A DNA stretch of 27,529 nucleotides, taken from IMG/VR virus record IMGVR_UViG_3300025408_000002. The stretch is one strand, 5' to 3'. The DNA comes from an uncultured virus (IMG/VR IMGVR_UViG_3300025408_000002) (taxonomy: Duplodnaviria; Heunggongvirae; Uroviricota; Caudoviricetes). The notes beneath the pieces are model-generated. The model was not told the origin of the DNA. It searched no databases and worked only from the letters and a program-made list of their open reading frames with translations. Below, in pieces: positions 1 through 27,529 of the stretch (position 1 is the stretch's first letter; the number at the start of each line of letters is the position of its first letter). A program made the position numbers and the translations under genes.

Positions 1-192
1 CGCGTGGTGGGAGGTATTACCAACGACTCACTCATGCGTATATGGCTGCCACCCGGCATCGTTGCCGATTCCACGAACAACCCGGCGGCATCCATCCTCA
101 AGCAAACCCGTGACCTGTTCGAGTACCGCGTGGAAGTGGTGGCGAAATCCACGAGTAACGGCGGCTCCCTCTTCGTTGCGAAAAAGGATTGA
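1..192 (+). CDS. 3' end of a hypothetical protein (runs off left edge); probably part of the phage-like operon
   Basis: Frame open from base 1 to TGA at 190-192, 3 nt before the next ATG (196); high-GC coding-like composition. Confidence 0.6.
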   Translation, partial: RVVGGITNDSLMRIWLPPGIVADSTNNPAASILKQTRDLFEYRVEVVAKSTSNGGSLFVAKKD

Positions 193-195
193 CGG

Positions 196-930
196 ATGGG
201 CCTCGCGCGCGTATCGGTTGGTGTGGCGCAGGCGCTGGATAAACTCCGGCGCCGGCGACGATTGCTGACCCGTGGCAACGCGGGAAAGGTGGCCGACGAT
301 GACATGGATCTCGTTGCGCACGCACTCGATGGACTCAACAACGATGTGGAGTTCGCCTTCCGCAACTTCCAGTGGGACCGAGCCAAGCCCGCGGTTGTGA
401 GCGGTGGTGGCGGCAGCGTGGAGGGCATGCCGATACGTCACAGCCCCGTCGCATTCGTCGTGGCGGAGTTCGAGCGCGTGGGCAAAGGTAGCGACGGACA
501 ATTCCGGCCAATGGACGCGGTACGCTGGAGCCTGTGGAATCGACACAACGCGCGGTACTACGTGGGCGTGGGTCAGGACTGCGATGTACGCAACATCACC
601 GGGACCGTGCATGTGGAATCGCTCAATGGTGGCGTGCCATCCGCATACCACGTACTGTGCATGCCCGTTCCGGGTAGCGGGAGCACGCTGATCCTGTCCG
701 GTGATTTGATCGGGCTGGACATCGGCTTCGGACGCTACGGCGATGATCGGTTGCGGTTTCGCGTGGACCTGTACCGATTCGCGGAAGACTTGGCCAGTGC
801 GACGTTGCAGGAAGTGAAGGACGGAAGCGTGAAGTTCCGATCAACGCGCGCGACAATCACCGATGGATTGCTCTCGGATTATCAAACCCATGGACTGAGA
901 CTGAAATGTCATCTGACGATCAACGCATAA
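196..930 (+). CDS. Hypothetical protein, possibly phage tail-associated (244 aa)
   Basis: Long ORF whose stop overlaps the next ATG (TAATG at 928-932); no recognisable catalytic motif. Confidence 0.7.
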   Translation: MGLARVSVGVAQALDKLRRRRRLLTRGNAGKVADDDMDLVAHALDGLNNDVEFAFRNFQWDRAKPAVVSGGGGSVEGMPIRHSPVAFVVAEFERVGKGSDGQFRPMDAVRWSLWNRHNARYYVGVGQDCDVRNITGTVHVESLNGGVPSAYHVLCMPVPGSGSTLILSGDLIGLDIGFGRYGDDRLRFRVDLYRFAEDLASATLQEVKDGSVKFRSTRATITDGLLSDYQTHGLRLKCHLTINA

Positions 931-3143
931 TGGCGGGGGCGGCGGTGGAGGGCGGTATCAACGCCGGCTCGCCGCGCCTTCGGTCCCGTTCGTCGCGGGT
1001 GCTGCCGCTCCTGCCCGCATTATTCGTGCTTGCCCTCGCGCTCCAACAGTTGGGTGCGGACGTGCGTGGCGTTTCCCCGCGGGTGCTCGCGCCGGACGAT
1101 AGTGGTGCCGTGGTCACGGTGGATTCCACCGACAGCATTGCAACGGGAAAACGGGAACGCGCGAACACTCCGGCAACGCTGACGTGGCATCAGTTCGACA
1201 GTCTTGCGAAGCACAGCAATATCTACTGCATATACATCGGCGACACCACGGGCAGGTACGTATCGCGCGAACACGTAGTGCGGCTTCTGGAAAACCAGCA
1301 TTACAGGGGCCGGGACTCGAGCTTCGTGTTTCAGGGCGACGAGTGCATACGCATCGAGCTACGCCTCGGAACCACCGCGGCCGTGCCGGACACCATACTG
1401 TGGATCAATCAATGCCAAGGCAGCCCCTGTCTCGATACTCTCACGATTCCCTTGGGTTGTTACGAGGAAAGGGAGGAAACGATTGAATCCGAGATGGAGG
1501 TCACGGTTTGCGATACCACGTGCTATCGCACCGACACGCTGAGAAGCCATCGGAGGTACATCCTCATGGAGGATTATCAGAAGGGATTGCTCACGGCCAC
1601 ATTCGGATGCAGCACCGCGCTCCCGGCTTCATCCTCCGCGATCTGGCTGCTCAGGAAGGGAAGCAGATGGTACGGCCCACTGTCGGGCGACCGACCTTTC
1701 GCCGGAGCGGCCGACGATTCATGTTGGATTGATCCGTTTTACGCGGCAATGTATGAAATTCGATTCGGCCCGGCTGGATATGGATACTGGACAGTGGACA
1801 CCACGATCAACAACTACGGATCGGCGGTGGTCGACTGTGCGTTGTTCGGTCAGGCGGGGATAAGCAGGATCATCGATAATTGCAGGTCGGAAATCCGCAC
1901 TAACACGGTGATACGAAGATTCCAGGAATGGATCTATTCGGGAAGGGACACCACCATCATAAATCGCGAATGTGACCCCTGCCTTGTCCCTTATTTTATG
2001 TGCGACGGTGGCACTCTGGACAGTACGCGACAGGTCAGATACATTTACGCCGACACAGTGAAACTCGACACGCTCAAGGAATTGTGTGTGCGTGAGTGGA
2101 CATATCCCATCGGAGGAACTTCGATATACAAGCCCAAAAACACCACCGCCTGCACGAGCGACAGTGCAACGCTCGCATTTCTTCGCGCGAATTGGGTGGG
2201 TAAGGGCGCTTCAAACTGGAGCAGCGGAAAACCCTACCGCCTTATCGACTACGGTACTTCCATCTGTATCTACCGATGCGAACCCGAGGACGAACCCACA
2301 TTCTATATCAGTGGTGAACGATGGTGGGCGCTGGCCGATCTGCCGATGGCTGTCCTTTGCACCGGCGACACCTGCCAGATTGAAACGCTGTTCTACCGTA
2401 CCGTCACGGCTCCGTGCTGCGGCAAGGATTCGAGCATCACCATTTACTGTGATCTCGAAGGATACTATCGTGATTCCACAGTCATTCAAATACGGGTCCC
2501 GAATCTCGGTGTTCCATGCCTGGACAGCGTGGTCGTGGGAATCGTCCCAACGGATACCATCAGGGCATTGGTTGATAGCGTTGTGACCTGGGTGCGTTTC
2601 AGAACGCCCATTGCCTACAAGTTGCAGTATCAAGACACATGCAGGTGCGTTCCTATCCTGAACGGACGGGAATTCTGCGGCGAACTGTGGATTGTGAGGG
2701 ACTGCGATCCTCCGATCTACTTTGGTTCGGACGGGAAATTGCACATTCCCTGCGATCCTGCGGGTTCCATTGATTACGAGTACGTCGAATCACTGGCGCG
2801 ACTACTGTCGCGAAGGGTGGACTCGCTCAGGCATATCGTGGATAGTTTGCTCGCTCTGCCATCGGGCAACACCTGGGACGCGAGCAAATACGAATCCGAT
2901 TTTACTGTGACTGCGTGGCGCGTGCATCTGGTGGACGCGAACGGTGAAAATATCGCGGTAACTCTCCCTCCATCCACCCACGGAGATCAGGTCGTTGTGA
3001 AGCGAATTGATGGCTCTGGGAATACGGTCACGTTAAACGGTACGGTTGACGGAGTGGACGAGCGGACATTGCTACAATACGAATCGCAATGGCTTGTTTT
3101 TTACGACGATCAGTGGTTCATAATATCAAATCACAGCCCATAG
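930..3143 (+). CDS. Large Cys-rich exported protein with C-terminal phage tail-fibre-like domain (~737 aa)
   Basis: Start moved to ATG 930 (coupled to upstream stop). N-terminal hydrophobic stretch VLPLLPALFVLALAL; 29 Cys by hand count. C-terminus VDANGENIAVTLP..GDQVVVKRIDGSGNTVTLNGTVDG...QYESQWLVFYDDQW resembles a common phage fibre module. Confidence 0.75.
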   Translation: MAGAAVEGGINAGSPRLRSRSSRVLPLLPALFVLALALQQLGADVRGVSPRVLAPDDSGAVVTVDSTDSIATGKRERANTPATLTWHQFDSLAKHSNIYCIYIGDTTGRYVSREHVVRLLENQHYRGRDSSFVFQGDECIRIELRLGTTAAVPDTILWINQCQGSPCLDTLTIPLGCYEEREETIESEMEVTVCDTTCYRTDTLRSHRRYILMEDYQKGLLTATFGCSTALPASSSAIWLLRKGSRWYGPLSGDRPFAGAADDSCWIDPFYAAMYEIRFGPAGYGYWTVDTTINNYGSAVVDCALFGQAGISRIIDNCRSEIRTNTVIRRFQEWIYSGRDTTIINRECDPCLVPYFMCDGGTLDSTRQVRYIYADTVKLDTLKELCVREWTYPIGGTSIYKPKNTTACTSDSATLAFLRANWVGKGASNWSSGKPYRLIDYGTSICIYRCEPEDEPTFYISGERWWALADLPMAVLCTGDTCQIETLFYRTVTAPCCGKDSSITIYCDLEGYYRDSTVIQIRVPNLGVPCLDSVVVGIVPTDTIRALVDSVVTWVRFRTPIAYKLQYQDTCRCVPILNGREFCGELWIVRDCDPPIYFGSDGKLHIPCDPAGSIDYEYVESLARLLSRRVDSLRHIVDSLLALPSGNTWDASKYESDFTVTAWRVHLVDANGENIAVTLPPSTHGDQVVVKRIDGSGNTVTLNGTVDGVDERTLLQYESQWLVFYDDQWFIISNHSP

Positions 3144-3157
3144 GCAGAGAGGACATC

Positions 3158-3742
3158 ATGAAATATTTCATTGTATTGGTTGTGCTGCTCGCGTTCCCGA
3201 TGGCTTCCACCGCGCAACAGGGAAGCCCCTCATCCCGATCGGGTGCAACTATTTTCCGTGATTCTTTGAGAGCATCGGAACAGTGGTATACATTCCGCAT
3301 CGATTCCACCTATCTTCGTGGCGGTGGCAGTCGTGGCGATACAACATGGTACGCTGATCCTCGTATCAGAGCCCCAAAAGGACAAGTTAAGCTACAAATT
3401 AATGTATTGAGCTCGAATGGTCGCGCCGACACCATTCGCGTGATGCGCTTGGTGCGCGCCACATATAATGCCGCTATCGACGCCTATGATAGCGTATGGG
3501 TACCCGTCCCAATCATGGATTTGGCAACAGCTACAACGGCACTTACCGGCATAATTAGTATCGGTCCGTTCTACGCGCCTTCGTGGGCCGAATTCTATTA
3601 TGGCTCTTTTCTGCTCTACGATATAACCGGCGAGAACGGGAGCTGGCGTATCGAACGAGTGAGCGGCAAAGGGCACCCGAACTATCCTGACGATTCAGCA
3701 ACTCATACACTGATTTTCGAATTCTTTAGAAAAGACTACTAA
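3158..3742 (+). CDS. Secreted hypothetical protein (194 aa)
   Basis: ATG 3158 preceded by AGAGGA; signal peptide MKYFIVLVVLLAFPMASTA|QQ; six D-(S/T) sequons. Confidence 0.8.
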   Translation: MKYFIVLVVLLAFPMASTAQQGSPSSRSGATIFRDSLRASEQWYTFRIDSTYLRGGGSRGDTTWYADPRIRAPKGQVKLQINVLSSNGRADTIRVMRLVRATYNAAIDAYDSVWVPVPIMDLATATTALTGIISIGPFYAPSWAEFYYGSFLLYDITGENGSWRIERVSGKGHPNYPDDSATHTLIFEFFRKDY

Positions 3743-3754
3743 CAGGAGTGGAGT

Positions 3755-4828
3755 ATGCGAAACAAAGCTATCTTATGCCTTGCTGCCCTTCTCTTGGTCG
3801 GGGCGGCGCGCGGAGGCGCTCAAGACATTTTCCCTGCCGGGAACGCGAAACCAACGGTAACCTACACGTCCGGTGACTATCAAATCATTGGATTTCGTGG
3901 TATTGATACAGCATCGTTCGCTGTTTCGAACGATGCGATGGTTCTCTCAACAGGAATGAAGTTTCGTTCTTGGGACGACCAACTTATGAGCATCCAGCGG
4001 GTGGGTAACGAGTTGTGGTTCAATACTACGGATAGATCAATTTTCCAAACTTATATGACCTTGGAACCGTATTCAACTGGCGTCACCATGACTTTATACG
4101 GGAACGATGGGAATAAAGACAACGTGAAGATTGACGCCGACAATGACTCTCCGACGCTCTACATGAATGGAACGTACCGTGGTGGACGAATCTACCTCAC
4201 GGCAACCGATCCAACTGCTGATTCCGATCTCATGGCGGAACATCCTTTCGCTATATATTCGGGAAGAAGTGGTTCGGAGACGGAAGTGAAGATGGGCGCT
4301 GTTGATACATACCTGAAATCCCGCTTCATCGTATGGAAGGGATATGGTACTGGAAAAGTATTCTCCATCGATTCATCCGGCAATGTAACTATTGCCTATG
4401 CCAATAATCACTTATCGAAACGGAAGCATCTACTCAACGTCGCTGGCACAGGATTATTCGACAGCAGCGTTATCGCGCTCGGTGATGTGAGCGGAGCCAC
4501 ATTCAACGGCGTGAAAGTGTATCGGGCTTTTCTTACGCAAACCGGCACGAGCGCCCCGACCGCAACGATACTGGAAAATTCCTTGGGCACAATCGTATGG
4601 GCACGCGCAGACACCGGAACGTACACTGCCACGCTTTCGAATGCCTTTACCGCGAACAAAACCTGGGCGGAGAACAAAATCATATCAGCCAGCACGGGCG
4701 CGGTATATGATATTGTTCGTACATCCGCAAGCGTGATGACAGTAACCACACGTCAGATGCCAGGAGCGGCGGCGCGAAAAGATGCTCTTCTTTCTTCAAC
4801 AGTTCTAGAGATTCGGGTCTACCCATGA
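3755..4828 (+). CDS. Secreted tail-fibre-like protein (357 aa)
   Basis: RBS AGGAG/GGAG; signal peptide MRNKAILCLAALLLVGAARGGA|QD; beta-rich fibre-like middle. C-terminal KVYRAFLTQTGTSAPTATILENSLGTIVWAR..G.Y...LEIRVYP domain that I recognise from Bacteroidota-phage fibre proteins. Confidence 0.75.
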   Translation: MRNKAILCLAALLLVGAARGGAQDIFPAGNAKPTVTYTSGDYQIIGFRGIDTASFAVSNDAMVLSTGMKFRSWDDQLMSIQRVGNELWFNTTDRSIFQTYMTLEPYSTGVTMTLYGNDGNKDNVKIDADNDSPTLYMNGTYRGGRIYLTATDPTADSDLMAEHPFAIYSGRSGSETEVKMGAVDTYLKSRFIVWKGYGTGKVFSIDSSGNVTIAYANNHLSKRKHLLNVAGTGLFDSSVIALGDVSGATFNGVKVYRAFLTQTGTSAPTATILENSLGTIVWARADTGTYTATLSNAFTANKTWAENKIISASTGAVYDIVRTSASVMTVTTRQMPGAAARKDALLSSTVLEIRVYP

Positions 4829-5487
4829 GACTGCTGCTGATCATATTATTTACGTCCTGCGCCACGGGCCAAGCCTACGTTTTTAATGGCGGATTTCCCG
4901 AGCATGATTCGCTGGTTGCCGAAGCATTCAAGCAAGGATATTCAAGTGTTCGGATATGGAATGGAACCGTGCAAATCGGTTCACTCTCTATTTCCCAGGC
5001 AAAAGCTACGGGCAAGACCCTGTATATTAAATCTTACAGTGGATTTGCTACTCACATTTCCGATGCAGATGACGCACTCATTTCAGGTATGTTGACAGTA
5101 ATGCCCACTGGTTCGAATACGGCTTCCAGACTTTGGAATTCGAATGCAGTGCTTCCAAGTATTGTCATCACAGGTGCGGGCGACACCGCAAACGCTACTG
5201 CATGGGATGTGGAATTTCATGCGCCCGATCCTTTCGGCGGTACAGCTTCGAGCTACGCGAACGGTTTCATCGCTGGTCAACTCATGGCTATACGGGATTC
5301 ATTGAACTGCTCATGGTGGGAAGCTCGATTTAGAGCACGAATCACGGGACATGCATGGACGCAAAAAAGTGGATATGGTAAAATCAATACGTCGGCAGCA
5401 CTTCAGTACGGCTTCGGTGTCCCACCGAATCCTTACGCGAATGGTTCGCCGAATTATCCTGAATGGTTCATTAAAAGTGGACGGTAA
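4825..5487 (+). CDS. Minimal, divergent subtilase (peptidase S8)-like exported protein (220 aa)
   Basis: ATGA overlap with upstream stop. Motifs in S8 order: AYVFNGG, EHDSLVA, MPTGSN, PSIVITGA, DVEFHAPD, ASSYANGFIAG, SGYGKINTSAAL. Confidence 0.6.
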   Translation: MRLLLIILFTSCATGQAYVFNGGFPEHDSLVAEAFKQGYSSVRIWNGTVQIGSLSISQAKATGKTLYIKSYSGFATHISDADDALISGMLTVMPTGSNTASRLWNSNAVLPSIVITGAGDTANATAWDVEFHAPDPFGGTASSYANGFIAGQLMAIRDSLNCSWWEARFRARITGHAWTQKSGYGKINTSAALQYGFGVPPNPYANGSPNYPEWFIKSGR

Positions 5488-5488
5488 T

Positions 5489-5767
5489 ATGAGCGCCTAT
5501 TCCGGTAAAATCTTCGGCACCATAACCGACGCAGAGACGGGCGAACCGCTCATCGGCGCCGTAGTGCGGGTTCATCGCCGCGACGGTCTGTACCTGGGCA
5601 GCGCGGGCACCAATCTACGTGGCGAATGGCTCTTCCTCGCCGACAACCAACCCGAGGATGTGCTTCAATTCAAGGCGGAGTATTTGGGCTATGTGTCGAT
5701 GGAGACGCTAGAGATCATCGGCCAGGACGACCCGCTGAACTTCAAACTGATGACGTTCGGACGGTGA
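5489..5767 (+). CDS. Carboxypeptidase regulatory-like (CarboxypepD_reg) single-domain protein (92 aa)
   Basis: GKIFGTITDAETGEPLIGAVV...GTNLRGEW...YLGY is the typical domain pattern; start moved to ATG 5489, just after the upstream stop. Confidence 0.75.
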   Translation: MSAYSGKIFGTITDAETGEPLIGAVVRVHRRDGLYLGSAGTNLRGEWLFLADNQPEDVLQFKAEYLGYVSMETLEIIGQDDPLNFKLMTFGR

Positions 5768-5771
5768 TGCG

Positions 5772-6164
5772 ATGAAAACAATACTTGTCCTCGCTCTGTT
5801 GCTCGCCGGCTGTTGCCAGCAACCCACGTTCGACCGCGATCCGGTAAAGGAATTCGAGCACCGCGTGCTCACCGATTACGGGTACAGTCGCGTCGATTCA
5901 CAAAACAGCACATACACCAACATCTTCGAGAAGCGTATCCACCTGCCCCATGGCTACTATCAGGTGCACATCTGGGTGGACGACCGACCGCAGGGACGAT
6001 ATGAGGTGTACGTGATGAATTCGACAACCCTGCCGAGCACGTACCTATACCACCGCGACGGCAAAGGGCAGAAAACCACGCGATTCTTTGGTTCGGTGCA
6101 CGAGGCGGAAAACTACGCGCATCGGGTGATTTCCACGCACGAGCAAGCCGTTGCCACGCAATAG
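5772..6164 (+). CDS. Lipoprotein of unknown function (130 aa)
   Basis: MKTILVLALLLAG|C lipobox; paralogous to the next gene. Confidence 0.8.
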   Translation: MKTILVLALLLAGCCQQPTFDRDPVKEFEHRVLTDYGYSRVDSQNSTYTNIFEKRIHLPHGYYQVHIWVDDRPQGRYEVYVMNSTTLPSTYLYHRDGKGQKTTRFFGSVHEAENYAHRVISTHEQAVATQ

Positions 6165-6278
6165 GTTGCGGCGGGATTTACAATAATTCGCGAGAATTTT
6201 TACGAGAATTTTCACGCAAAATGTAAGGAGACGCCATGGACTGCAAGAAGAAGGGCGGAAAGAAAGGCGGATAGCGGC

Positions 6279-6680
6279 ATGAAAATCAGCGGACTTCGCA
6301 GGGTTATACTCGAAAATAATTCCAGAATTATTCCGTTGCTTGCTCTCGCGCTGCTTGCGCTCGCATCGTGCGCCGCGCCGCGCTCCACGTACTTCGAGCG
6401 GCACATCCTTGAGACGCGCGGATACTCTCCCGTCGGAAGCGCGTCCTGGGAGCTGGCCGGAGTGTGGAAGCGAAGCCACCATCTCCCAGGCGGGCTGTAT
6501 CGGGCCGAGCTCCGCATCGTGGAGGGCGGTTACCGCGTTTCGGTGTGGCACTGGACGGGCACCGCGCGCGAACTGCTCGAAGCCGGCAAACACACCGAGC
6601 CGATACTCGACTGCGCGCTGGACGTGGCCGACGAACTGATACACAGGCGTGAAGAAAAGCACAGGATTGAACGACGGTAA
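6279..6680 (+). CDS. Lipoprotein of unknown function, paralogue of 5772-6164 (133 aa)
   Basis: LLALAS|C lipobox; FERHILETRGYSPVGS...HLPGGLY aligns with FEHRVLTDYGYSRVDS...HLPHGYY; start position uncertain. Confidence 0.7.
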   Translation: MKISGLRRVILENNSRIIPLLALALLALASCAAPRSTYFERHILETRGYSPVGSASWELAGVWKRSHHLPGGLYRAELRIVEGGYRVSVWHWTGTARELLEAGKHTEPILDCALDVADELIHRREEKHRIERR

Positions 6681-6705
6681 TCACACGGACGCGCGGGGGT
6701 ATTCC

Positions 6706-7035
6706 ATGAAACTTCGTCCTTGGTTCTGGATTGGCGTGCTACTCATGGCGCTGTATAATCACGCGGACTTTCTCTGGCAAGCGGAAATGCACGTATGGCC
6801 TGCCTGGCTGGACTTGACGCATCGAGCTCCGCACTGGCCGTGGTATCTGGACTGGATACCGCATGACGGCTGGCACGTGGTCCAATCGATCAAGAACCAC
6901 GCGGCCCTCCTCGGATCGGCATTGGTGTTCTACGGCACCGTGCACAGATGGCGTTCTCCATGGTGGGAACTCGTTGCGGTTTTGCTGGTATACGGGTTGA
7001 CGCGATTCCTGTGCTTCACGCTGTTCCTGCCGTAG
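6706..7035 (+). CDS. Small Trp-rich membrane protein with DGWH motif (109 aa)
   Basis: ATG 6706 after GGGGGT; three hydrophobic segments; last gene of the operon. Confidence 0.7.
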   Translation: MKLRPWFWIGVLLMALYNHADFLWQAEMHVWPAWLDLTHRAPHWPWYLDWIPHDGWHVVQSIKNHAALLGSALVFYGTVHRWRSPWWELVAVLLVYGLTRFLCFTLFLP

Positions 7036-7974: not shown

Positions 7975-9009
7975 ATGGAAGAAATAAATAAACAGCTTGA
8001 CGCAATTTTAAATTTAGCAGACCATTATCTTGTTAAATCTCGACAGGACAAAAGCCATTATTACGATGAGTTTTTAGAAGCAGCGACAATTTTAAAAAGT
8101 GTAATGACTGAAAAGGAGTTTAAGTTTTGGTTGGCCGAAAAAATGCTAATAAAACAACAAGCATTCTTGCCGAAGACGTTTATTCAATATGCTGTTGAAA
8201 CGGCAACTGTTCGATATTTTGCTGAAAAGCATAATGAAAATTTCAGAGTTGAAGCAAAAATAAATCCTAGTAACGACAAAGACGTTGACGTTCAGTTCAC
8301 AGACAAATCCTATTTATACAATATAGAAGTAAAATGCTCTGACTTTGTAGCAAAAGAAGCAGTTGACTCTCAGGACGCCTTTAAGTATGAAACAGTTGGC
8401 AGAATACCAGAAAGACAAGAAACGAAAGAAGTTATATCAAAAGCATTAAATGAAGGAATGGCGAAAAAAGGTGAACAAACTCAACCTCATTTAGATGCTA
8501 AAAATATGGACAATAACCTAAAAGGTTTTCTTGAACTTGCCCACGAAAAATTCAATCCAACACCGAATGAAAATGAAGTAAATATTTTGCTTGTCGGTTG
8601 TGATGATGAAAGAGATATCCAAAAATGGCATTATTATTTATTCGCAAACCAAGGACTTTTTACATCTGAAAGTTATGCGGACGGAACCAAATACAACAAC
8701 GTAGACTTAGTAATTCTCACAAATCAATATTTCAAACACAACGAATACTATTCTAAAAGAGTAAAAAACTCTTGGACGCTTGAAAAGAGCTTCAATCTTG
8801 TATTTAGCAATCCGTCTAGACGATTACTAAAAGAAAAAGCGATAATGAATTTTTTAGACATATTCCCACATTACACTTGGGACTTGTGTAGTTATTCTGT
8901 TCCGGGAGACGCACCATCATACGTTAAGGACAGCGTAAGAATATCTTGGTTTGTAAAGGACAATTTGGAAAAAACAAAAGGAATTTACTTGTTTAATGAG
9001 AATGATTAA
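7975..9009 (+). CDS. Cassette 1: hypothetical protein with PD-(D/E)xK-like motif (344 aa)
   Basis: Intact AT-rich ORF; EAKINP..DKDVDVQF.....YNIEVKC fits E...D...ExK. Confidence 0.85.
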   Translation: MEEINKQLDAILNLADHYLVKSRQDKSHYYDEFLEAATILKSVMTEKEFKFWLAEKMLIKQQAFLPKTFIQYAVETATVRYFAEKHNENFRVEAKINPSNDKDVDVQFTDKSYLYNIEVKCSDFVAKEAVDSQDAFKYETVGRIPERQETKEVISKALNEGMAKKGEQTQPHLDAKNMDNNLKGFLELAHEKFNPTPNENEVNILLVGCDDERDIQKWHYYLFANQGLFTSESYADGTKYNNVDLVILTNQYFKHNEYYSKRVKNSWTLEKSFNLVFSNPSRRLLKEKAIMNFLDIFPHYTWDLCSYSVPGDAPSYVKDSVRISWFVKDNLEKTKGIYLFNEND

Positions 9010-9021
9010 CAGGAGCACTGG

Positions 9022-9153
9022 CTATAACACGGGTTTGGCAAAAGTGGCGGTTTAGTGCTCTGCGGACACATTTGTGGTTAATTAAAGTTTCGTACTCCGC
9101 ATCAAAATTTGTGGTGAAAATCGCCACTTTCGCCAAGCCCGAAACCTTTAGGT
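9022..9153 (+). repeat. attC-like site 1 (long, ~132 bp)
   Basis: R'' CTATAAC 9022-9028; arms GGGTTTGGCAAAAGTGGCG / CGCCACTTTCGCCAAGCCC (17/19 complementary); R' TTTAGGT (GTT changed to TTT). Confidence 0.75.
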
Positions 9154-9175
9154 GCAATATTTAAAACACGACTAC

Positions 9176-11206
9176 ATGGCAATAACACAGCAACAAATAA
9201 ATCAAGCAAAAATAGTTCAAGACGCGGCTGCGCAAGATTTGACACAAGCGGTCAGACTTGTTGCTGGTCCAGGAACAGGTAAGTCTTTTGTAATTGAAGG
9301 ACGAGTTTCATGGTTAATTCAAAACCAAAATATTTTACCCGACAACATTATCGCTGTTTCATTTACAAGAGCAGCGGCAAATGATTTAAGACGTAGAATT
9401 CAATCCAAAGGGCAAAGTGTTGGAATAAATGATATACATAGAGTTAGAGTGTCGACTTTGCACTCGTTAGCTTTATATATTTTACGCAAGACGGGTAACT
9501 TAGCGCAATATCCAACTGACCCAGTAATCTTGGATGATTGGGAGTTGGACAACATTTTCGACAGCGAATTCAGTAGTTCAATTGGCATAACACCAACAAG
9601 AGCTAGTGAAATAAGAAGAGACCATGAAGCATTTTGGAGCACTGGGGTTTGGAATCCAGCCAACTTGCCACCTCTTAACAATCCTGTTTCACAACAAGAA
9701 AGAAATTATTTTAATGGGCACTATGCAACAAGAACACAAACTTATTCTTGCGTATTACCGGGAGAAGTTATACGGACTTGTGTGGACGCAATAAATGGTG
9801 GACATATTGACCCTGTGGCAGAGCTTGGAGTTGAGCATGTAATTATTGATGAAGTTCAAGACTTAAATCCTTGTGATTTCCAATTCATTGATATACTTAT
9901 CCAACGTGGGGTTAATGTATTCGTATCGGGTGATGACGACCAAAGCATATATTCATTTCGATTTGCCTTCCCGCAAGGGATTCAGAACTTTGTTGTTAAC
10001 TATCCAATTGCAAGTAATCATTTATTAAAAGACTGTTTCCGTTGCACAGTTAATATTTTAGGTGCTGCTGCAAATGTATTGAATACATATCCTGACCCAA
10101 ATAGGATTCCTAAGAATTTAACTTCGGTTTATTCCGCTTCCAATCCAACTAACAATGGGTATATTGTTGGCAACAGATTCAACACTGCCAACCAAGAAGT
10201 AGAATACATTGCAAATAGTTGTGCTAGTCTTATTAATAGCGGCATTTCCCCTAAGGACATAATGATTCTTTTGGGAAACAAAAGAACCTTGCTCGACCCA
10301 ATCACTGATGCATTAGGAGTAAGAAACATACCTTTTGATGCAAATCAAAGAGATGTTTTTAAAGATTCCGACCATGGTAGATTTCTAATAAGCCTATTGC
10401 GAATATTAACTGATGCAAATGATTATGTTGCACATAGAGTGCTGTTGGGAGCTCCAAGGGGCATTGGACAAAGAACAACTAATTCTATTGCAAATAAGGT
10501 TATTGCAAACAACTTGAATTACAGAAATATATTTTATCAACCATTGCCAAATAATGTTTTTGCAAACCGAGAACCGAATGCAATTAATAAAGCCATTAGT
10601 AATATAAATATAGTTAACGCTTGGAACTTAAATGAAGACTTAAACCAAAGAGCTGGTGATATTGACCAAATTATTTTAATCAATTTCACTCAAGCTGAAG
10701 TGACTGATTGGAGAAATCAAATTCAAAATATACCATTATCAATGACTCTTTCGGAACTTAAGGAATACATTGAAACGGATTCCGAAGTTGTAAAGTCCAG
10801 CATTATCGCCAATATTCTTCAAAGGCAAAATCATCAAGGGAACAATCCGCCTGCACAAAACCCTCTCGACAAAATTAGAATTATGTCTTTTCATTCTTCA
10901 AAAGGACTTGATTCCAAAATTGTCTTTATTCACGGATTAGAAGAAGGTATCTTTCCAACATTACGGTCGCAGCAATCTCCAGGTCTTATTCTAGAAAATG
11001 CAAGACTATTTTATGTGGCTATTACTAGAGCAAAAGCAGCCTGCTTATTGAGTTACTCATCAAGAAGAACTATTAATGGGACATACACACATACGGTAGC
11101 TTCAAGATTTGCTCAGGCAACTGGGGTTGTATTTACGCAACAAGCAAATAATCAGCTGAGTGCTAATGAAATTGCACAAATACAGACATCCATTGCAGAC
11201 TTATAA
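9176..11206 (+). CDS. Cassette 2: UvrD/Rep/PcrA-family SF1 DNA helicase (676 aa)
   Basis: AGPGTGKS, SFTRAAA, STLHSLA, IDEVQD, GDDDQSIYSFR, FRC, HSSKGL, RLFYVAITRAK; start moved to ATG 9176 because GTG 9152 lies inside the attC. Confidence 0.92.
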   Translation: MAITQQQINQAKIVQDAAAQDLTQAVRLVAGPGTGKSFVIEGRVSWLIQNQNILPDNIIAVSFTRAAANDLRRRIQSKGQSVGINDIHRVRVSTLHSLALYILRKTGNLAQYPTDPVILDDWELDNIFDSEFSSSIGITPTRASEIRRDHEAFWSTGVWNPANLPPLNNPVSQQERNYFNGHYATRTQTYSCVLPGEVIRTCVDAINGGHIDPVAELGVEHVIIDEVQDLNPCDFQFIDILIQRGVNVFVSGDDDQSIYSFRFAFPQGIQNFVVNYPIASNHLLKDCFRCTVNILGAAANVLNTYPDPNRIPKNLTSVYSASNPTNNGYIVGNRFNTANQEVEYIANSCASLINSGISPKDIMILLGNKRTLLDPITDALGVRNIPFDANQRDVFKDSDHGRFLISLLRILTDANDYVAHRVLLGAPRGIGQRTTNSIANKVIANNLNYRNIFYQPLPNNVFANREPNAINKAISNINIVNAWNLNEDLNQRAGDIDQIILINFTQAEVTDWRNQIQNIPLSMTLSELKEYIETDSEVVKSSIIANILQRQNHQGNNPPAQNPLDKIRIMSFHSSKGLDSKIVFIHGLEEGIFPTLRSQQSPGLILENARLFYVAITRAKAACLLSYSSRRTINGTYTHTVASRFAQATGVVFTQQANNQLSANEIAQIQTSIADL

Positions 11207-11221
11207 AAAGAGAAATACTGA

Positions 11222-11353
11222 GCCTAACAGCCGTTTGTCGAAATGGGGGCTTGCGTGGTTAAATCAAGTGCATTGCTTCTGCCAACATTTGTGCTTAGTT
11301 GACAGTCAAGTGCTCCGAAATCCCCCACTGCGGCAAACGACATAGCGTTTTCG
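11222..11353 (+). repeat. attC-like site 2 (long, ~132 bp)
   Basis: R'' GCCTAAC; arms CGTTTGTCGAAATGGGGG / CCCCCACTGCGGCAAACG (15/18); R' GTTTTCG. Confidence 0.75.
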
Positions 11354-11424
11354 GCAAGGCGTGGAGAACAGTGCGAACTCAAACAATGCGACAAGAAATA
11401 GTCACATTATTGACAAAATTGGCG

Positions 11425-12333
11425 ATGAAAACAAAAAATACACAATGCAACGAAGACGGCGACAATGGTATCATTGCTGCTTCTGTGATTGTAACAATTG
11501 CAATTATTGGACTATGGACTTTAACATATATTTTATTGAAAGACTTAGAAGAAGGAGCCAGAGGGACGTTTGGTGATATGTTCGGTTCAGTAAACGCATT
11601 GTTTTCTGGACTTGCATTCGCAGGTATTATCCTAACCATATTGCTGCAACGTAAAGAACTAAAATTACAAAGAGAAGAACTCAGATCCACGAGAGCTGAG
11701 TTTGAAACACAAAACGAAACTTTGAAGCTTCAACGTTTTGAAAACACTTTTTTTAGCATTCTCAACCTTCATCACCAAATTGTATCTGCTATTGATTACA
11801 GATATTACGTGAGCAAAAAGAGAAAAAAAAATTTTATCGAAAAAGGTTTTAAGACGATGAAGCCAGAGGAAATGGAGGCTGTGACAATAAAAGGACGAGA
11901 CGTATTTCGACACCGGTACAATTTGATGCTTCCAAAACTCAAAGAACATCCTGACAAATACGAAGAAATATACATGTCCCATTACGAAACTGCTCAGACG
12001 GACTTTGGCCATTACTTTAGAAATCTTTATCGAATGATAAAGTTGGTTGACCAAACGGACTTTTTTTATGACAGTAGAACGGTTTCAAAAGAGGAGATTT
12101 GCAAAATTAAGTATCGGTATACCAGTATAATTAGGTCTCAAATATCAGACTATGAACTACTTTGGATATTCTATAATTGTTTAAGTGCGAACGGCAAGAA
12201 CAAATTCAAGCCTCTTGTAGAGCATTATTCATTTTTTAAAAACATACCGACAAGCCTTATTGCGGACAAAATGCATGCAGGCTTGTATGATAAAAAAGCC
12301 TTCACGCCAAATGACATACAGCACAGCCGCTAA
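11425..12333 (+). CDS. Cassette 3: putative phage abortive infection protein (putAbiC-like, two N-terminal TM helices)
   Basis: GTFGDMFGSVNALFSGLAF..LQRKEL..QRFENTFF...GHYFRNLY...IIRSQISDYEL..IFYN..KFKPLVE.Y.FFKN. Stop TAA is part of R'' CGCTAAC. Alternative start at 11386. Confidence 0.85.
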   Translation: MKTKNTQCNEDGDNGIIAASVIVTIAIIGLWTLTYILLKDLEEGARGTFGDMFGSVNALFSGLAFAGIILTILLQRKELKLQREELRSTRAEFETQNETLKLQRFENTFFSILNLHHQIVSAIDYRYYVSKKRKKNFIEKGFKTMKPEEMEAVTIKGRDVFRHRYNLMLPKLKEHPDKYEEIYMSHYETAQTDFGHYFRNLYRMIKLVDQTDFFYDSRTVSKEEICKIKYRYTSIIRSQISDYELLWIFYNCLSANGKNKFKPLVEHYSFFKNIPTSLIADKMHAGLYDKKAFTPNDIQHSR

Positions 12334-21508: not shown

Positions 21509-22942
21509 TTAATCCTTCTTCTTCAGTATCTCTTTGAAGTACAAATCGTTGTAGTACGGCTCAAAATCTACGTAAATTCGTTCCAATGCCGGTTGAGGAA
21601 CCACGACAACGGTAGGCTCATCAGGAGACTCGATACTTGTAACCACGAATACGACATGAGGGAACACGCCATCCTTCGAGGGGAAAAACAAGGTTGGATC
21701 ATACTGATAGAAACCATATCGAGCCATGTCCTCTCCGTAATAGACCGCAGCACTGCTATTTTCTGGCACTGGCATCTGAAGAAACGGCATGCTTCTGTTG
21801 ATTTCCTCACAATATTGATCATTTACATACAATTTTGCGTCTTTGAAGTCGGCCTTGTACTCCATTTTATACGCACCTTGGTAGGTCTGGTGGTTAATAC
21901 CAGCCGCAAACGCCCCAAGCGCATTTGCAATGGCGCTTCCAGTGGTGACTCCAGTTTCTGGGTAGAAGTAGACATTCACCACGGGATCGAGATTTCCGGT
22001 ATTACCGCGCCACCCCTGCATGTCATCGAAGAAATCGTATCTTTCACCGCCTTCAGCAGATCCTTCCATCTCTCTCTCGATACGACCCTGAGTCACAACA
22101 GCTTCACCGCCCTTCTTCATTGCGTATTCCATTGGTGGCGTGGTGAAGAATATCTTAAAAGCACCTGTATTCGTCTGGCCGGTAATGGAGTAAAAATCGG
22201 GGTCTCGCTCCTCACTCACTGCGCTCCACACCAATTCCTCAACGGGATACACTTCACTCGGCATCACAGGGTACAGAATAAACGGCGGTGGCTCATGATC
22301 TGGATGCTCACACATGGCGATTGCATCCTCAATCATCTTGGAAGCTTGAGTGATGACGACGCTCCCCGCCACCCCTGCACCAGTTCCATCCGTGTCCAGA
22401 AACGTGTTCACTGCTATGACTTGACCATCGAGATTCAGCATCGGGCCACCAGAGTTCCCGTGATTGATGTTCACATCACTGATGATCACGTCTCGCTTCA
22501 CTTTGCTCACGATTCCAGCAGTTACAATTCTTATCTGGCTCAGGGGACTACCAATGGCGAGGACTCTTTCGCCTTCGTAGGCGATGGGTTCTGCCTCATC
22601 GAATAGTACAAGTGGATTGAGGTGCGCAACCGCCTCTGGTGCGACTTGCAGGATTGCAATATCGAGTACCTTGTCGATAAATATCGGTAGCCCCGGCACT
22701 TTCATCGTATCATTGATCTGAACGCGTAGCTTCACAGATCCTGCAATAACGTGGGCATTCGTTACAACAAGGCCAAACTTGTGAATCAGAAAACCGCTCC
22801 CAGAACCCATGTCACCCTGAATCGTGAAAACACCGTCTCGGTATTTCTGAAAGATTTTCGCTTCATCTGAAATCGATCTTTGTGCCGTCAAATATGAAGA
22901 CGCAACTAGACCAAACAGTATACAGATCAGCGATTTACGCAT
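21509..22942 (-). CDS. Secreted trypsin-like (S1C/HtrA-type) serine protease without recognisable PDZ domain (477 aa)
   Basis: Start moved to ATG 22942 (RBS AGGAG; signal peptide ..YLTA|Q); GSGF, TNAHV, DIAIL, GNSGGP triad motifs. Confidence 0.9.
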   Translation of the reverse strand: MRKSLICILFGLVASSYLTAQRSISDEAKIFQKYRDGVFTIQGDMGSGSGFLIHKFGLVVTNAHVIAGSVKLRVQINDTMKVPGLPIFIDKVLDIAILQVAPEAVAHLNPLVLFDEAEPIAYEGERVLAIGSPLSQIRIVTAGIVSKVKRDVIISDVNINHGNSGGPMLNLDGQVIAVNTFLDTDGTGAGVAGSVVITQASKMIEDAIAMCEHPDHEPPPFILYPVMPSEVYPVEELVWSAVSEERDPDFYSITGQTNTGAFKIFFTTPPMEYAMKKGGEAVVTQGRIEREMEGSAEGGERYDFFDDMQGWRGNTGNLDPVVNVYFYPETGVTTGSAIANALGAFAAGINHQTYQGAYKMEYKADFKDAKLYVNDQYCEEINRSMPFLQMPVPENSSAAVYYGEDMARYGFYQYDPTLFFPSKDGVFPHVVFVVTSIESPDEPTVVVVPQPALERIYVDFEPYYNDLYFKEILKKKD

Positions 22943-23410
22943 AATCGATCTCCTTGAAGAGCATATCTCCACTAATTGAAGCCCTATGAGTGCGATTGAG
23001 ATTTGATGTAATTCGTACCTGCATAAAGACGGTGCTTGGCTTTGACTCCCCACCACAGCCCGGCACAATGAGGCGAGGCGTGCGGGTCTTTGACTCGGTA
23101 TAGTCCACCATTGGCACTCCACTGACTCTGGCTTGACACAAACCTCATCGATGCCACCGGAAGTTTTTAACCGTAATCCTTCTGGGACACATTTGAGGGG
23201 TGTATTCGTTGAGAAGAATGTACGAGATCAGGATGCTATTGGCAAGTGGATAGTGCACCATGTCCAGAATCTCCATGCCGGGCTTGCGCATATTCCGACA
23301 GCTGCTCTGTCGTCATCCAGCAACAAAATTAATGGTATTCGCTGGAAAGCAATTGAGTTATCCCGACGAACGTCGGAACATCACCTGTCGGAACATCACC
23401 CACGCCCACC

Positions 23411-23439
23411 TTGTCTTTCACGACAATTTTGGCTAATTT
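23411..23439 (+). promoter_or_regulatory. Sigma70-type promoter upstream of the R-M operon
   Basis: TTGTCT-17 nt-TAATTT, related to 7481-7509; preceded by tandem GTCGGAACATCACC x2 (23372-23400). Confidence 0.4.
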
Positions 23440-23576
23440 CAGCCATTGTTGCGGTGGCGGCGATGGGCTGGAGGCCGAGGAAGATGGTGGTTGGTCGGCA
23501 TGAGGTGCCCGGGTTTTTTGTGTAATTGGCTGCGCGCTGCGACGGAGTGCTTGCATCGCCGGCAGGGGATTGAGTA

Positions 23577-24230
23577 ATGAACTATGTCAAGTCCAAACAG
23601 CGCGTGGCCGATCACGGAGAGGTTTTTACTCCGCCGTGGATGGTGGAGGCTATGCTCAACCTTGTGAAGGGCGAGACGGAGCGCATTGACGCGCGCTTTC
23701 TGGAGCCGGCGTGCGGGAGTGGCAACTTCCTCGTCCGCATCCTGCAACGGAAGCTCGCCGCTGTAGAAGTCAAGTTCGGGAAGTCCGACTTCGAGAGGCG
23801 GCATTACGCTCTTCTGGCTGTGATGTGCACCTATGGAATCGAACTGCTGGAGGATAATATCGCCGAGTGCCGCGCGAATATGCTGGAGATCCTTGCCGAC
23901 TATCTGAACGTGGGGGAGGCGGACGATATCTATTGGGCTGCTTCCTATGTGCTGTCGCAGAATCTTGTGCACGGCGACGCGCTGAAAATGCGCAGCAGCG
24001 ACGATCAGCCCATCACCTTTGCGGAATGGGGCTATCTCGGCAAGGGCAAATTCCAGCGTCGCGACTTCCGCCTGCACGATCTCGCCATGTCGTCGGCCTT
24101 CAGTGCGGAGGATTCGCTCTTCGCCCACCTTGGCAAGCACGAAATCTTCACGCCGACGCGGACCTATGCTCCGATGACGGTGCGTGAGCTGGCCGCCGCA
24201 GCTGGTGGTGCCGCGAAGGAGGTCGTATGA
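23577..24230 (+). CDS. Short N6-DNA-methyltransferase-like subunit (SAM-binding half only, 217 aa)
   Basis: GEVFTP and FLEPACGSGNF present; no NPPY/DPPY; ATGA overlap with the next gene. Confidence 0.88.
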   Translation: MNYVKSKQRVADHGEVFTPPWMVEAMLNLVKGETERIDARFLEPACGSGNFLVRILQRKLAAVEVKFGKSDFERRHYALLAVMCTYGIELLEDNIAECRANMLEILADYLNVGEADDIYWAASYVLSQNLVHGDALKMRSSDDQPITFAEWGYLGKGKFQRRDFRLHDLAMSSAFSAEDSLFAHLGKHEIFTPTRTYAPMTVRELAAAAGGAAKEVV

Positions 24231-25793
24231 GCGCCCAGGCAAGCTTCGCGCTCCGCGGTCGCAACCCGGATGTGCTGACCTGCATTGCGAATCTCTCCAA
24301 CGACGAAGTGTTCACGCCGCCGGAGTTTGCGAATAGAATGCTGGACACGCTGGCCGAGGCCTGGGCGGCGGCCAACGACGGCGCGAATATCTGGGCGGAC
24401 AAGACGGTGCGCTTCCTCGATCCGTGCACCAAGTCCGGCGTCTTCCTGCGCGAGATCACCATCCGCCTCAACAAAGGCCTTGCGGCCGAAATCCCTGACC
24501 TCGAAGAGCGCGTCAATCACATACTGACCAAACAGGTGTTCGGCATCGGGATTACGCAGCTCACGAGTTTGCTGGCGCGGCGCAGCGTGTATTGCTCGAA
24601 GCATGCCAAGGGCAAGCACTCCATCGCCAAGGGCTTTGCCAGCGACGCGGGCAATATCTGGTTCGAGCGGCTCGAGCACACGTGGATCGGGGGAAGGTGC
24701 AAATACTGCGGTGCAGGCCGCTCCATCTTCGACCGAGCCGACGGCCTGGAAACCCACGCCTACGCGTTCATTCACACCGAAAACATCAGAACTCGACTTG
24801 CCGAGATCTTTGGAGGCGATATGCAGTTCGACGTGATCATCGGAAACCCGCCGTATCAGTTGGCGAGTGACGGCGGTACACGGGATATCCCCATCTACAA
24901 CAAGTTTGTGGAGCAGGCGAGGAAGCTCGAACCTCGCTATCTCTTGATGGTTATCCCATCTCGGTGGATGGCGTCTGGTCTCGGACTGAGCGATTTCCGC
25001 AAGACCATGCTCGAAGACAAACGTATCTCAAGACTGGTGGACTACGAGCGCATGGATGAAGTTTTCCCGGGCGTGGATTTTGAGGGCGGCGTGTGTTATT
25101 TCCTTTGGGATCGTGATCATGCGGGCAAATGTGAATTCACCACAGTCAGTGCCGGAGAAGCTATCGGACTTATCGCGCGCGATCTGGACGAACACGACAT
25201 CCTCGTCCGCGACATTCGAGGTTTGGACATTCTTGAGAAGGTGCGTTCGGCAAACGAGCCGTCGATTATTGAAATACTGTCCGCAGACAAAGAATTCGGT
25301 TGGACCTCGAATTTCGACGGATTTCACCAAAGCAAAAAGCCGACGGATATAGCGCTTTACTACTCGCGTGGCGGCAAACGGCTTGTCGGCGGCATCCCAC
25401 GCAAGCATGTCACCAAAAGTTCGAATCTCATAGATACGTGGAAGGTGATGACTCCAGCGGCTTATGGTGAGCGAGGGGCACGGCCTGCGATGGTGCTTGG
25501 ACCAAGCTTTATCGCTGAATCACCATCAGTTTGCACGCAGACCTACCTGTTCTTCTACGTGTCCTCCATGAATGAGGCGGAAAGCCTTCAAAGCTACCTA
25601 CAAACTCGTTTCTTCCGCTTTCTGGTGTCACTACGGAAAATCACCCAGCACGCAACTCGCGCAACCTACACGTGGGTTCCACAGCAAACGTGGGATCGCG
25701 TCTGGACGGACGAGGCGCTCTACAAGAAATACCGCCTGAGTAAAATCGAGATCGCTCACATCGAGGCCAGCATTCGTCCGAAGGCCAGCGACG

Positions 25794-25801
<8 letters not shown>
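24227..25801 (+). CDS. Eco57I-type N6-adenine DNA methyltransferase with C-terminal target-recognition region (524 aa)
   Basis: DEVFTP, FLDPCTKSGVFL, FDVIIGNPPY, IPSRW, GGVCYFLW. Confidence 0.92.

Positions 25802-27529
<1,728 letters not shown>

Follow-up and report, generated by a model that had tools for sequence, protein, structure and literature searches.

Must every part of a tailed phage be completed in the cytoplasm? The textbook account of tailed-phage assembly is wholly cytoplasmic, classical fibres are made without a signal peptide, and we know of no part of a tailed phage that matures elsewhere. The question is raised by four consecutive genes, p737, p194, p357 and p220 (positions 930-5487), on a 27,529-nucleotide stretch of DNA from an uncultured virus (IMG/VR record IMGVR_UViG_3300025408_000002; Caudoviricetes), the whole of which we call the window. 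A first reading made from the letters alone (the sequence-only reading) had proposed that these genes encode phage-fibre-like proteins that pass through Sec into the periplasm, there to be disulfide-bonded and O-glycosylated. In a host genome of 4.69 Mb and ~60% G+C the window corresponds, on the reverse strand, to the opening 27,457 bases of a contig, C15, and a prophage of ~70 kb lies upstream of and across it.

We conclude that these fibre-like proteins, encoded at the end of the particle-building genes, probably do mature outside the cytoplasm, because they combine secretion signals of the host's type with many cysteines and a high density of the sequon D-[ST]-[AILVMT]. A review gives D-S/T-A/L/V/I/M/T as the motif of the general O-glycosylation system of Bacteroidota, which acts on non-cytoplasmic proteins (PMC12871550). 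By "sequon" we mean D-[ST]-[AILVMT] throughout. To the extent that sequences can speak to it, Sec export, a need for an oxidising compartment and selection for the host's sequon are well supported; that the proteins are in fact exported, disulfide-bonded and glycosylated, and above all that they become attached to the particle, is what we infer from these signals. The features concerned are as follows, an arrow marking a possible cleavage site.

930..3143, plus strand: p737, 737 aa.
930..1058, plus strand: N-terminal leader or signal anchor of p737 (residues 1-43), possible cleavage LGA↓DV.
1098..2849, plus strand: Cys-rich, sequon-rich body of p737 (residues ~57-640), with all 29 Cys and all 26 D[ST].
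2763..3143, plus strand: short coiled-coil neck and exchangeable ~80-aa C-terminal knob of p737 (residues ~612-737).
3158..3742, plus strand: p194, leader STA↓QQ; 6 sequons, 12 Asp.
3755..4828, plus strand: p357, leader GGA↓QD; C-terminal domain of ~100 aa at nt 4514-4825, with the motif LTQTGTSAP.
4825..5487, plus strand: p220, leader ATG↓QA (or lipoprotein, Cys12); 3 sequons.

The translations bear out that four genes in a row begin with export signals and that Gln occupies the predicted +1 position in three of them. The leaders of p194 (MKYFIVLVVLLAFPMASTA↓QQ), p357 (MRNKAILCLAALLLVGAARGGA↓QD) and p220 (MRLLLIILFTSCATG↓QA, for which Cys12 offers a lipoprotein alternative) each consist of a short basic n-region and a hydrophobic core, with small residues occupying -3 and -1 and Gln coming next: the signal of the Q-rule, specific to Bacteroidetes according to Bochtler et al. 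(PMC5837995). p737 opens with an Arg-rich n-region of 23 residues, after which comes a hydrophobic core of 20 residues (VLPLLPALFVLALALQQLGA↓DV); this N-terminus may be cleaved off as a leader or may stay as a signal anchor.

The host genome is that of a Bacteroidota bacterium with a type IX secretion system (T9SS), and it follows the Q-rule. We place it in this group because it contains at least 150 matches to the C-terminal sorting domain of T9SS cargo; the sole named relative of p737 comes from a metagenome-assembled genome (MAG) labelled Bacteroidota. In a crude set of host open reading frames (ORFs; the longest non-overlapping ones of at least 100 aa, n=3303), Gln follows an AxA-like site in 56% of 690 leader-like ORFs as against 10% of the 2613 others; Glu, Asn, Asp and Lys show no comparable excess at +1, and in a cruder count Gln was the commonest +1 residue (88/640). 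SusD was not found in this genome, nor was glutaminyl cyclase of the plant type (PF05096), the only type at which the search was aimed. The host's most sequon-rich proteins (for example C6:147906-154136, C16:37518-43172 and C9:5767-11064) are leader-bearing, 1400-2100 aa long and furnished with 25-40 Cys, much in the manner of the p737 family, to which they nevertheless have no sequence similarity.

It could be objected that the hydrophobic N-termini have nothing to do with export and that folding takes place in the cytoplasm, as it does for ordinary fibres. We called leaders by eye from translations and with a simple hydrophobicity heuristic rather than a trained predictor, and the p737 leader, which the heuristic missed, is atypical in its long n-region. 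The n-h-c layout, the AxA-like sites and a Gln at +1 that is specific to this host nevertheless argue for export, as does the conservation of these segments across homologues of only 23-39% identity, and sequon excess and Cys richness coincide with leaders and are absent from leaderless late proteins. We give such cytoplasmic folding very little credence.

The counts on which the idea of glycosylation had been founded proved exact. p737 has 29 Cys and 55 Asp; Ser or Thr follows 26 of these Asp, and 20 of the sites are sequons, where shuffling gives a mean of 3.4 and none of 5000 shuffles reached 20. In p194, six of 12 Asp are so followed, all six in sequons (shuffle mean 0.8; 0/5000 shuffles reach 6), and p220 has three sequons where 0.5 are expected (p=0.012). 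The frequency of sequons stands far above both shuffled sequence and the cytoplasmic background.

Within the prophage, sequons go with leaders. In nine ORFs with leaders there are 41 sequons where 8.9 are expected, an observed/expected ratio (O/E) of 4.6 (without p737, 21 against 5.6), and 18 leaderless late genes carry 26 against 30.2 (O/E 0.86). The nine were hand-chosen, comprising seven of the 13 ORFs flagged by the heuristic together with p737 and the lipoprotein p133 (6279-6680), both of which it had missed; five flagged ORFs were left out as membrane, holin-like or overlapping-frame ORFs, and a sixth (-28790..-27924), without a clear leader, was counted as leaderless. Adding back the five gives 45 sequons against 11.5. 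A second prophage in the same genome repeats the pattern, with 27 sequons against 6.5 in three leader-bearing ORFs and 19 against 13.8 in 11 others. In host ORFs the O/E is 1.47 for those that are leader-like and 1.19 for the rest, and D-[ST] followed by other residues is depleted; the exported phage proteins are far more sequon-dense than the host's own. Enrichment of the motif in exported proteins, as in these host ORFs, is also reported for the phylum in the review (PMC12871550).

An exhaustive, profile-free search with p737 returned 102 matches, 19 covering the body and 83 only the C-terminal end (~627-737). All 13 full-length members of the family have an N-terminal hydrophobic leader (in two it is cut inside), and they are built alike, a short coiled coil joining the conserved body to an end that varies, in sizes of 737-1179 aa. 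Each has 28-39 Cys and 15-31 sequons where 3.5-5.8 are expected, a count reached by none of 1000 shuffles for any of the 13, and the six fragments are enriched as well (p <= 0.002). Of the 29 Cys of p737, 23 are conserved in at least 10 of the 13 members. The excess belongs to the full sequon: over the family its O/E is 5.22 (300 against 57.4), compared with 1.11 for D-[ST] with other third residues, 1.03 for E-[ST]-hydrophobic, 0.82 for N-[ST]-hydrophobic, 0.99 for D-[AG]-hydrophobic and 0.80-0.96 for reversed motifs. Its third residues are, by frequency, L, T, V, I, C, A, S and M, an order close to the published preference (PMC12871550). The p737 knob (residues ~650-737) has no sequons.

Could the D-[ST]-hydrophobic triplets instead be a structural motif of a Cys-rich fold, in proteins that are exported and perhaps parts of the particle yet unglycosylated? 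Many sites occupy strictly conserved positions (D195 and D340 in 13/13 members, D154 in 12/13, D90, D542 and D549 in 11/13), and the conserved D[ST] at D263 and D569 precede Cys, a non-canonical third residue, on which ground part of the signal may be structural. Other exported fibre-like phage proteins are sequon-poor. The host, lacking SusD and with no plant-type glutaminyl cyclase found, is not typical of Bacteroidia, and its glycosylation is putative; for Bacteroidota at large, the complete biosynthetic pathway is among the open points named in the review (PMC12871550). A fold motif would not readily account, however, for the requirement for Asp (Glu and Asn controls are ~1.0), for third residues like those of published glycoproteomes (PMC12871550), for an equal excess in other, unrelated prophage proteins with leaders (p194, p156, p220, the product of the ORF that follows the capsid gene, and a bitopic early protein) or for the specific, milder excess in the host's leader-like ORFs. 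We regard an unglycosylated structural motif as improbable.

That two of the proteins end in phage fibre-like domains, as the sequence-only reading had it, is confirmed by matches of p737 and p357 to phage tail modules, which these domains are, rather than ordinary adhesins. Residues ~650-737 of p737 match four records of Halorubrum tailed viruses; elsewhere this end domain occurs together with Phage_T7_tail, PTR, beta-helix and Phage_depo_C, and its profile finds in the PDB the T4 baseplate protein gp10 (E 0.0027; N-terminal region) and a tailspike depolymerase (E 0.034). Residues 254-357 of p357 match 76 phage records and 95 confirmed of 123 candidate IMG/VR stretches, always at the extreme C-terminus; neither the p357 family nor its end domain has a sequence relative in the PDB. 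Among 79 viral ORFs with this domain, 72 have the ordinary leaderless N-terminus of a fibre and seven a Bacteroidota-type leader with Gln at +1 (six called by the heuristic, one by eye). Two of the seven score as PHROG "tail fiber" (one at E 3e-38), and these two sit between tail genes and holin/endolysin genes.

The remaining parts have few relatives. Searches of Pfam, PHROG and NCBIfam gave no family match for p737, p194, p357, p220 or p244, the gene preceding p737, and the Cys-rich body of p737, p194 and p220 found nothing in the PDB either. p194 has one homologue (59% identity, leader AFA↓QP); by tblastn, p194 and p220 have no match in 50,697 phage records. In the ESM Atlas, which compares protein language-model features, the clusters nearest to p194 consist of small viral proteins with no known function, and its weak look-alikes there include XepA-type clusters, XepA being a prophage protein encoded beside lysis genes. 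The language-model look-alikes of p220 are small viral Peptidase_S8-like proteins, a resemblance that does not make it a Peptidase S8 (PF00082): relaxing the Pfam cutoff to E <= 5 still gave no match.

In two further respects the proteins resemble receptor-binding proteins. p357 has a paralogue in the second prophage (481 aa, 62% identity, leader AAA↓QP), encoded after an 801-aa member of the p737 family; sharing of this kind between co-resident prophages is expected of receptor-binding genes in phages with a common host. The leader of the paralogue is followed by a stretch that by eye resembles a CarboxypepD_reg-like domain, without a Pfam match. In independent sludge and wastewater sequencing runs, near-identical copies of the block break into unlike sequence at 2857, 1154, 3219, 3859, 4457 and 4521. 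The breaks coincide with domain or gene borders, 2857 being the body/knob junction of p737, and each was seen in one contig only; they suggest, weakly, that modules are exchanged in nature.

The p737 family is rare and sporadic. It occurs in 2/40 related genomes and was found in 0/400 further genomes of the phylum by a profile search of low sensitivity, which scored two candidates per genome and did not recover the second copy in the host genome itself; a related-locus search with a five-row alignment found one MAG contig and no match in IMG/VR. It nonetheless spans four phage backbones. In C15 its gene comes after a polyvalent protein. The second prophage (contig C6 of the host genome, 25069-65290) is of siphovirus type, with integrase, RecT, TerL, portal and tape measure, and is otherwise unrelated to that of C15; here the 801-aa member (leader SASA↓QG; profile E-value 1.6e-41) follows the tape measure (PF20155) and genes of 138, 612 and 135 aa. 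In a related genome (L012) the gene lies between a nozzle-like gene and further phage genes, and on the MAG contig (L005) capsid, connector and lysin genes precede it, and it stands among three more genes with leaders. The region following the leader is conserved among the podovirus-type members and replaced in the siphovirus-type copy, where the profile match starts only at 139 of 757; such replacement would fit a dock specific to the backbone.

The DNA upstream of the window establishes the phage context. Besides early genes it contains a complete virion module, with terminase (both the small and the large subunit), a P22-like portal, the major head protein, an SU10-type adaptor and a 749-aa nozzle-like protein, and a tyrosine integrase lies ~62 kb upstream. 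The element looks like an integrated prophage of short-tailed type, whole rather than a remnant. As to its attachment site, only one 14-mer is common to the integrase side and the window (at 22953), where by our estimate ~0.3 such matches are expected by chance, and we claim no site on that ground. Directly 3' of the major capsid gene is a leader-bearing, sequon-rich ORF (-25065..-24466, L002; leader GLG↓QP), with a counterpart after the capsid gene of a related prophage (L012, ~2000-2637; leader ASA↓QI); it may encode an exported head-associated protein.

The block with its neighbours, ~-280 to 7035, forms the distal end of the late operon. These neighbours are:

-15888..-292 in window coordinates (L001:351-15947, minus strand): 5198-aa polyvalent protein.
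1..192, plus strand: 3' part of p156 (156 aa, beginning 278 nt before position 1; leader MRKYGLTLLLIAFVCAVALA↓GS).
196..930, plus strand: p244, leaderless.
5489..5767, plus strand: 92-aa CarboxypepD_reg-like beta-sandwich protein, leaderless.
5772-6164 (LLAGC) and 6279-6680 (ALASC), plus strand: two paralogous small lipoproteins, 0 sequons.
6706-7035, plus strand: small multi-pass membrane protein, 0 sequons.

The polyvalent protein, whose gene ends 13 nt before p156, contains SET, InPase, ART-PolyVal, Strawberry-notch-type helicase and LPD38 domains, and not one Cys in its 5198 residues. p156 has three sequons where 0.5 are expected. From the polyvalent protein gene through 6164, successive genes are separated by at most 14 nt or overlap, on which account the block is the tail end of a late operon and not a set of separate "moron" units. 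A terminator scan gave no signals above chance within the block, and a sigma-70 promoter scan was at chance level, with a model that does not fit the host phylum. The two lipoproteins and the small membrane protein (5772-7035) may be lysis or exclusion genes at the operon end, the lipoproteins being conceivably spanin-like or exclusion proteins of the Lom/Bor/Llp/Cor kind; no endolysin was identified in the C15 prophage.

With a whole prophage at hand, the other possibility raised at the outset, a prophage-derived surface structure, loses ground. Domestication would mean that the block is a remnant and that the host uses phage-derived fibres as adhesins on its own surface. Among the host's own secreted proteins there are indeed many large ones rich in Cys and sequons, and the fibres PblA and PblB of Streptococcus mitis phage SM1 double as adhesins. 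Both prophages, however, retain full sets of integrase/recombination, packaging, head and tail genes, and the family's sporadic occurrence in 2/40 relatives, with the low-sensitivity survey of the phylum adding none, is not what a host function would suggest. Nor are the proteins cargo of the T9SS: its sorting domain (TIGR04183 and related) is absent from their C-termini, none of 14 proteins tested matching any such NCBIfam model (E <= 0.05) and the 150 matches scored genome-wide all lying on contigs other than C15. No other outer-membrane export signal was found in the block proteins. We consider domestication very improbable.

Where, then, would the proteins go? Our preferred reading is that they are distal products of the late operon, exported by Sec, glycosylated, and docked on the particle at lysis as receptor-binding appendages, a reading prompted by gene position, by modularity and by the precedent of phage phi18:3 discussed below; judging from sequence, we put its probability at roughly 0.45. 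Sec would translocate the block proteins, and cleavage by signal peptidase I would leave Gln as the first residue in three of the four; the cysteines of p737 would be oxidised in the periplasm, and the host's general O-glycosylation system would modify the D-(S/T)-(A/I/L/V/M/T) sites. When lysis breaks the inner membrane, the proteins would meet DNA-filled particles and dock on them as receptor-binding appendages. More broadly, some tailed phages of Bacteroidota might build their virions in two compartments, heads and tails in the cytoplasm, with fibres, and perhaps the protein encoded after the capsid gene, exported, disulfide-bonded, O-glycosylated and attached at lysis; the virion would then leave the cell with host glycans on the parts that recognise the host. 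This joint reading is tentative, and we would hold it at somewhat worse than even odds.

The precedent is Cellulophaga phage phi18:3 (NC_021794), whose record annotates gp085-087 as virion/tail proteins "based on experimental MS/MS proteomics analysis". Like the window proteins these are large proteins of a Bacteroidota phage, with leaders and Gln (VSA↓QT in gp086 and LNA↓QT in gp087; in gp085, ...SFGYSQVL..., a Gln lies beside the hydrophobic core), encoded in a block adjoining lysis genes. This record is the only experimental hint that leader-bearing proteins occur in a tailed-phage particle. Unlike the window proteins, they have only 0-3 Cys and one sequon each where ~3 are expected, and the two sets share no sequence similarity.

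The chief competitor to docking is that the proteins are exported, and probably glycosylated, but serve off the particle, whether in the envelope of the infected or lysogenic cell (masking or modifying the receptor, as in superinfection exclusion, or aiding lysis) or as free, soluble receptor-binding or depolymerase-like proteins. It draws on the lack of any recognised particle-attachment domain after the leaders and on a leader that in at least one comparison, with Flavobacterium phage 11b, stands in for the usual N-terminus of a fibre. The exported genes adjoin lysis or lipoprotein genes in the window (5772-7035), at L005, at L016/L020/L036 and in phi18:3, and the weak Atlas look-alikes of p194 of XepA type point the same way. 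Other phages, moreover, encode small signal-peptide or lipoprotein products in the tail-fibre region, often as separate transcription units that are expressed in the lysogen, such as lambda Lom and Bor, T5 Llp and phi80 Cor. The window proteins share their location and export with these, but at 194-737 aa, with tail-type modules and translational coupling to late genes, they are unlike such small products without fibre-type domains. An account of the block as moron or exclusion-lipoprotein units was rejected on these sizes and modules, the gaps of at most 14 nt and the lack of a terminator excess. The tight coupling leaves no space for a separate promoter, and across the family, proteins of 737-1179 aa with exchangeable tail-type ends are unlike known exclusion proteins. 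The second prophage, too, has no other receptor-binding candidate after its tape-measure block, the L012 gene lies inside the tail module, and the leader-bearing proteins of phi18:3 are annotated as found in virions. Taken together, a role off the particle seems to us unlikely, if far from fanciful.

Several observations weigh against docking of glycosylated appendages. No particle-attachment domain was recognised behind the leaders, and a leaderless homologue in the cultured phage 11b has a normal fibre N-terminus where one leader-bearing relative has its leader. With no T9SS or other outer-membrane export signal, the exported proteins should stay in the periplasm until lysis, and in the literature found we met no description of a route from the periplasm to a cytoplasmic particle. 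The MS/MS annotation of phi18:3 could stem from envelope material that co-purified. Leader calls are crude, as noted, and p244 and the 92-aa protein, within the block, are leaderless. p244 has D[ST] at 0/21 Asp, and no alternative reading frame was found for it; over its C-terminal ~150 aa, however, it shares homology with a protein of the related element L005 that has a leader and many sequons (BLASTP E 4e-14) and is encoded in the same position, just upstream of an 815-aa homologue. As regards glycans, p357 is not enriched in sequons (1 against 2.0 expected), the phi18:3 proteins are sequon-poor, and leader-bearing relatives of the p357 end domain on viral contigs have an O/E of 0.57 (seven unique proteins), with 0.71 in 59 leaderless ones. 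Since p357, these relatives and the phi18:3 proteins are sequon-poor, sequon richness cannot be general to leader-bearing fibre-like phage proteins; glycosylation would be a trait of some proteins of this lineage and not of the exported fibre-like class. The sequence-only reading is thus supported in part: leaders follow the host's Q-rule, and sequons exceed background and partition with leaders, but in p357 the sequon enrichment fails.

Against this background the window proteins can be set beside better-known systems. With classical fibres, tailspikes and baseplate proteins (T4 gp10, PHG11b_46 of phage 11b, the T7 type) they share a conserved proximal part with exchangeable C-terminal modules, as well as a gene at the end of the tail module; they differ in having a leader where a particle-binding N-terminus is usual, as the leaderless PHG11b_46 illustrates, and a body rich in conserved Cys. 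Glycosylated virions are known among mycobacteriophages and among archaeal and eukaryotic viruses, and they too bear glycans on surface proteins; the glycosyltransferases of mycobacteriophages, however, are phage-encoded and cytoplasmic, whereas our proposal calls on a periplasmic system of the host after Sec export. Known substrates of Bacteroidota O-glycosylation resemble the window proteins in being non-cytoplasmic, in the three-residue motif and in its enrichment in leader-bearing host ORFs, but the window proteins are late proteins of a phage, with a sequon density ~5-6 times chance as against 1.5 for exported proteins of the host. The review of that system makes no mention of phage (PMC12871550). 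The full-text literature searched, in which subscription journals were thinly covered, yielded no description of Sec-exported or O-glycosylated tail fibres of tailed phages.

The rest of the window lies beyond the late operon. An island of low G+C (0.34-0.40) at 7975-12333 encodes a 344-aa protein of unknown kind, a UvrD-type helicase and a protein with a putAbiC domain; it probably represents a defence cassette, situated close to the end of the prophage or right at it. At 21509-27529 a minus-strand gene for a trypsin-like peptidase is followed by genes for MmeI/Eco57I-type methyltransferases, and a T5orf172/ResIII helicase-like gene runs off the window end.

The combination of sequons and cysteines offers a simple bioinformatic marker for further cases, and the case can be tested directly in a cultured phage, phi18:3. 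Should fibres of this kind indeed mature in the periplasm, the expression of receptor-binding proteins for engineering would be affected, since a fibre dependent on disulfides and glycans would misfold in the E. coli cytoplasm. It would no longer be safe to set aside phage genes with signal peptides as non-structural "morons". An adsorption apparatus that carries glycans of the host's type could differ in its stability, its resistance to proteases, or its recognition by defence or immune systems, and periplasmic maturation would change where and when the virion becomes infectious.

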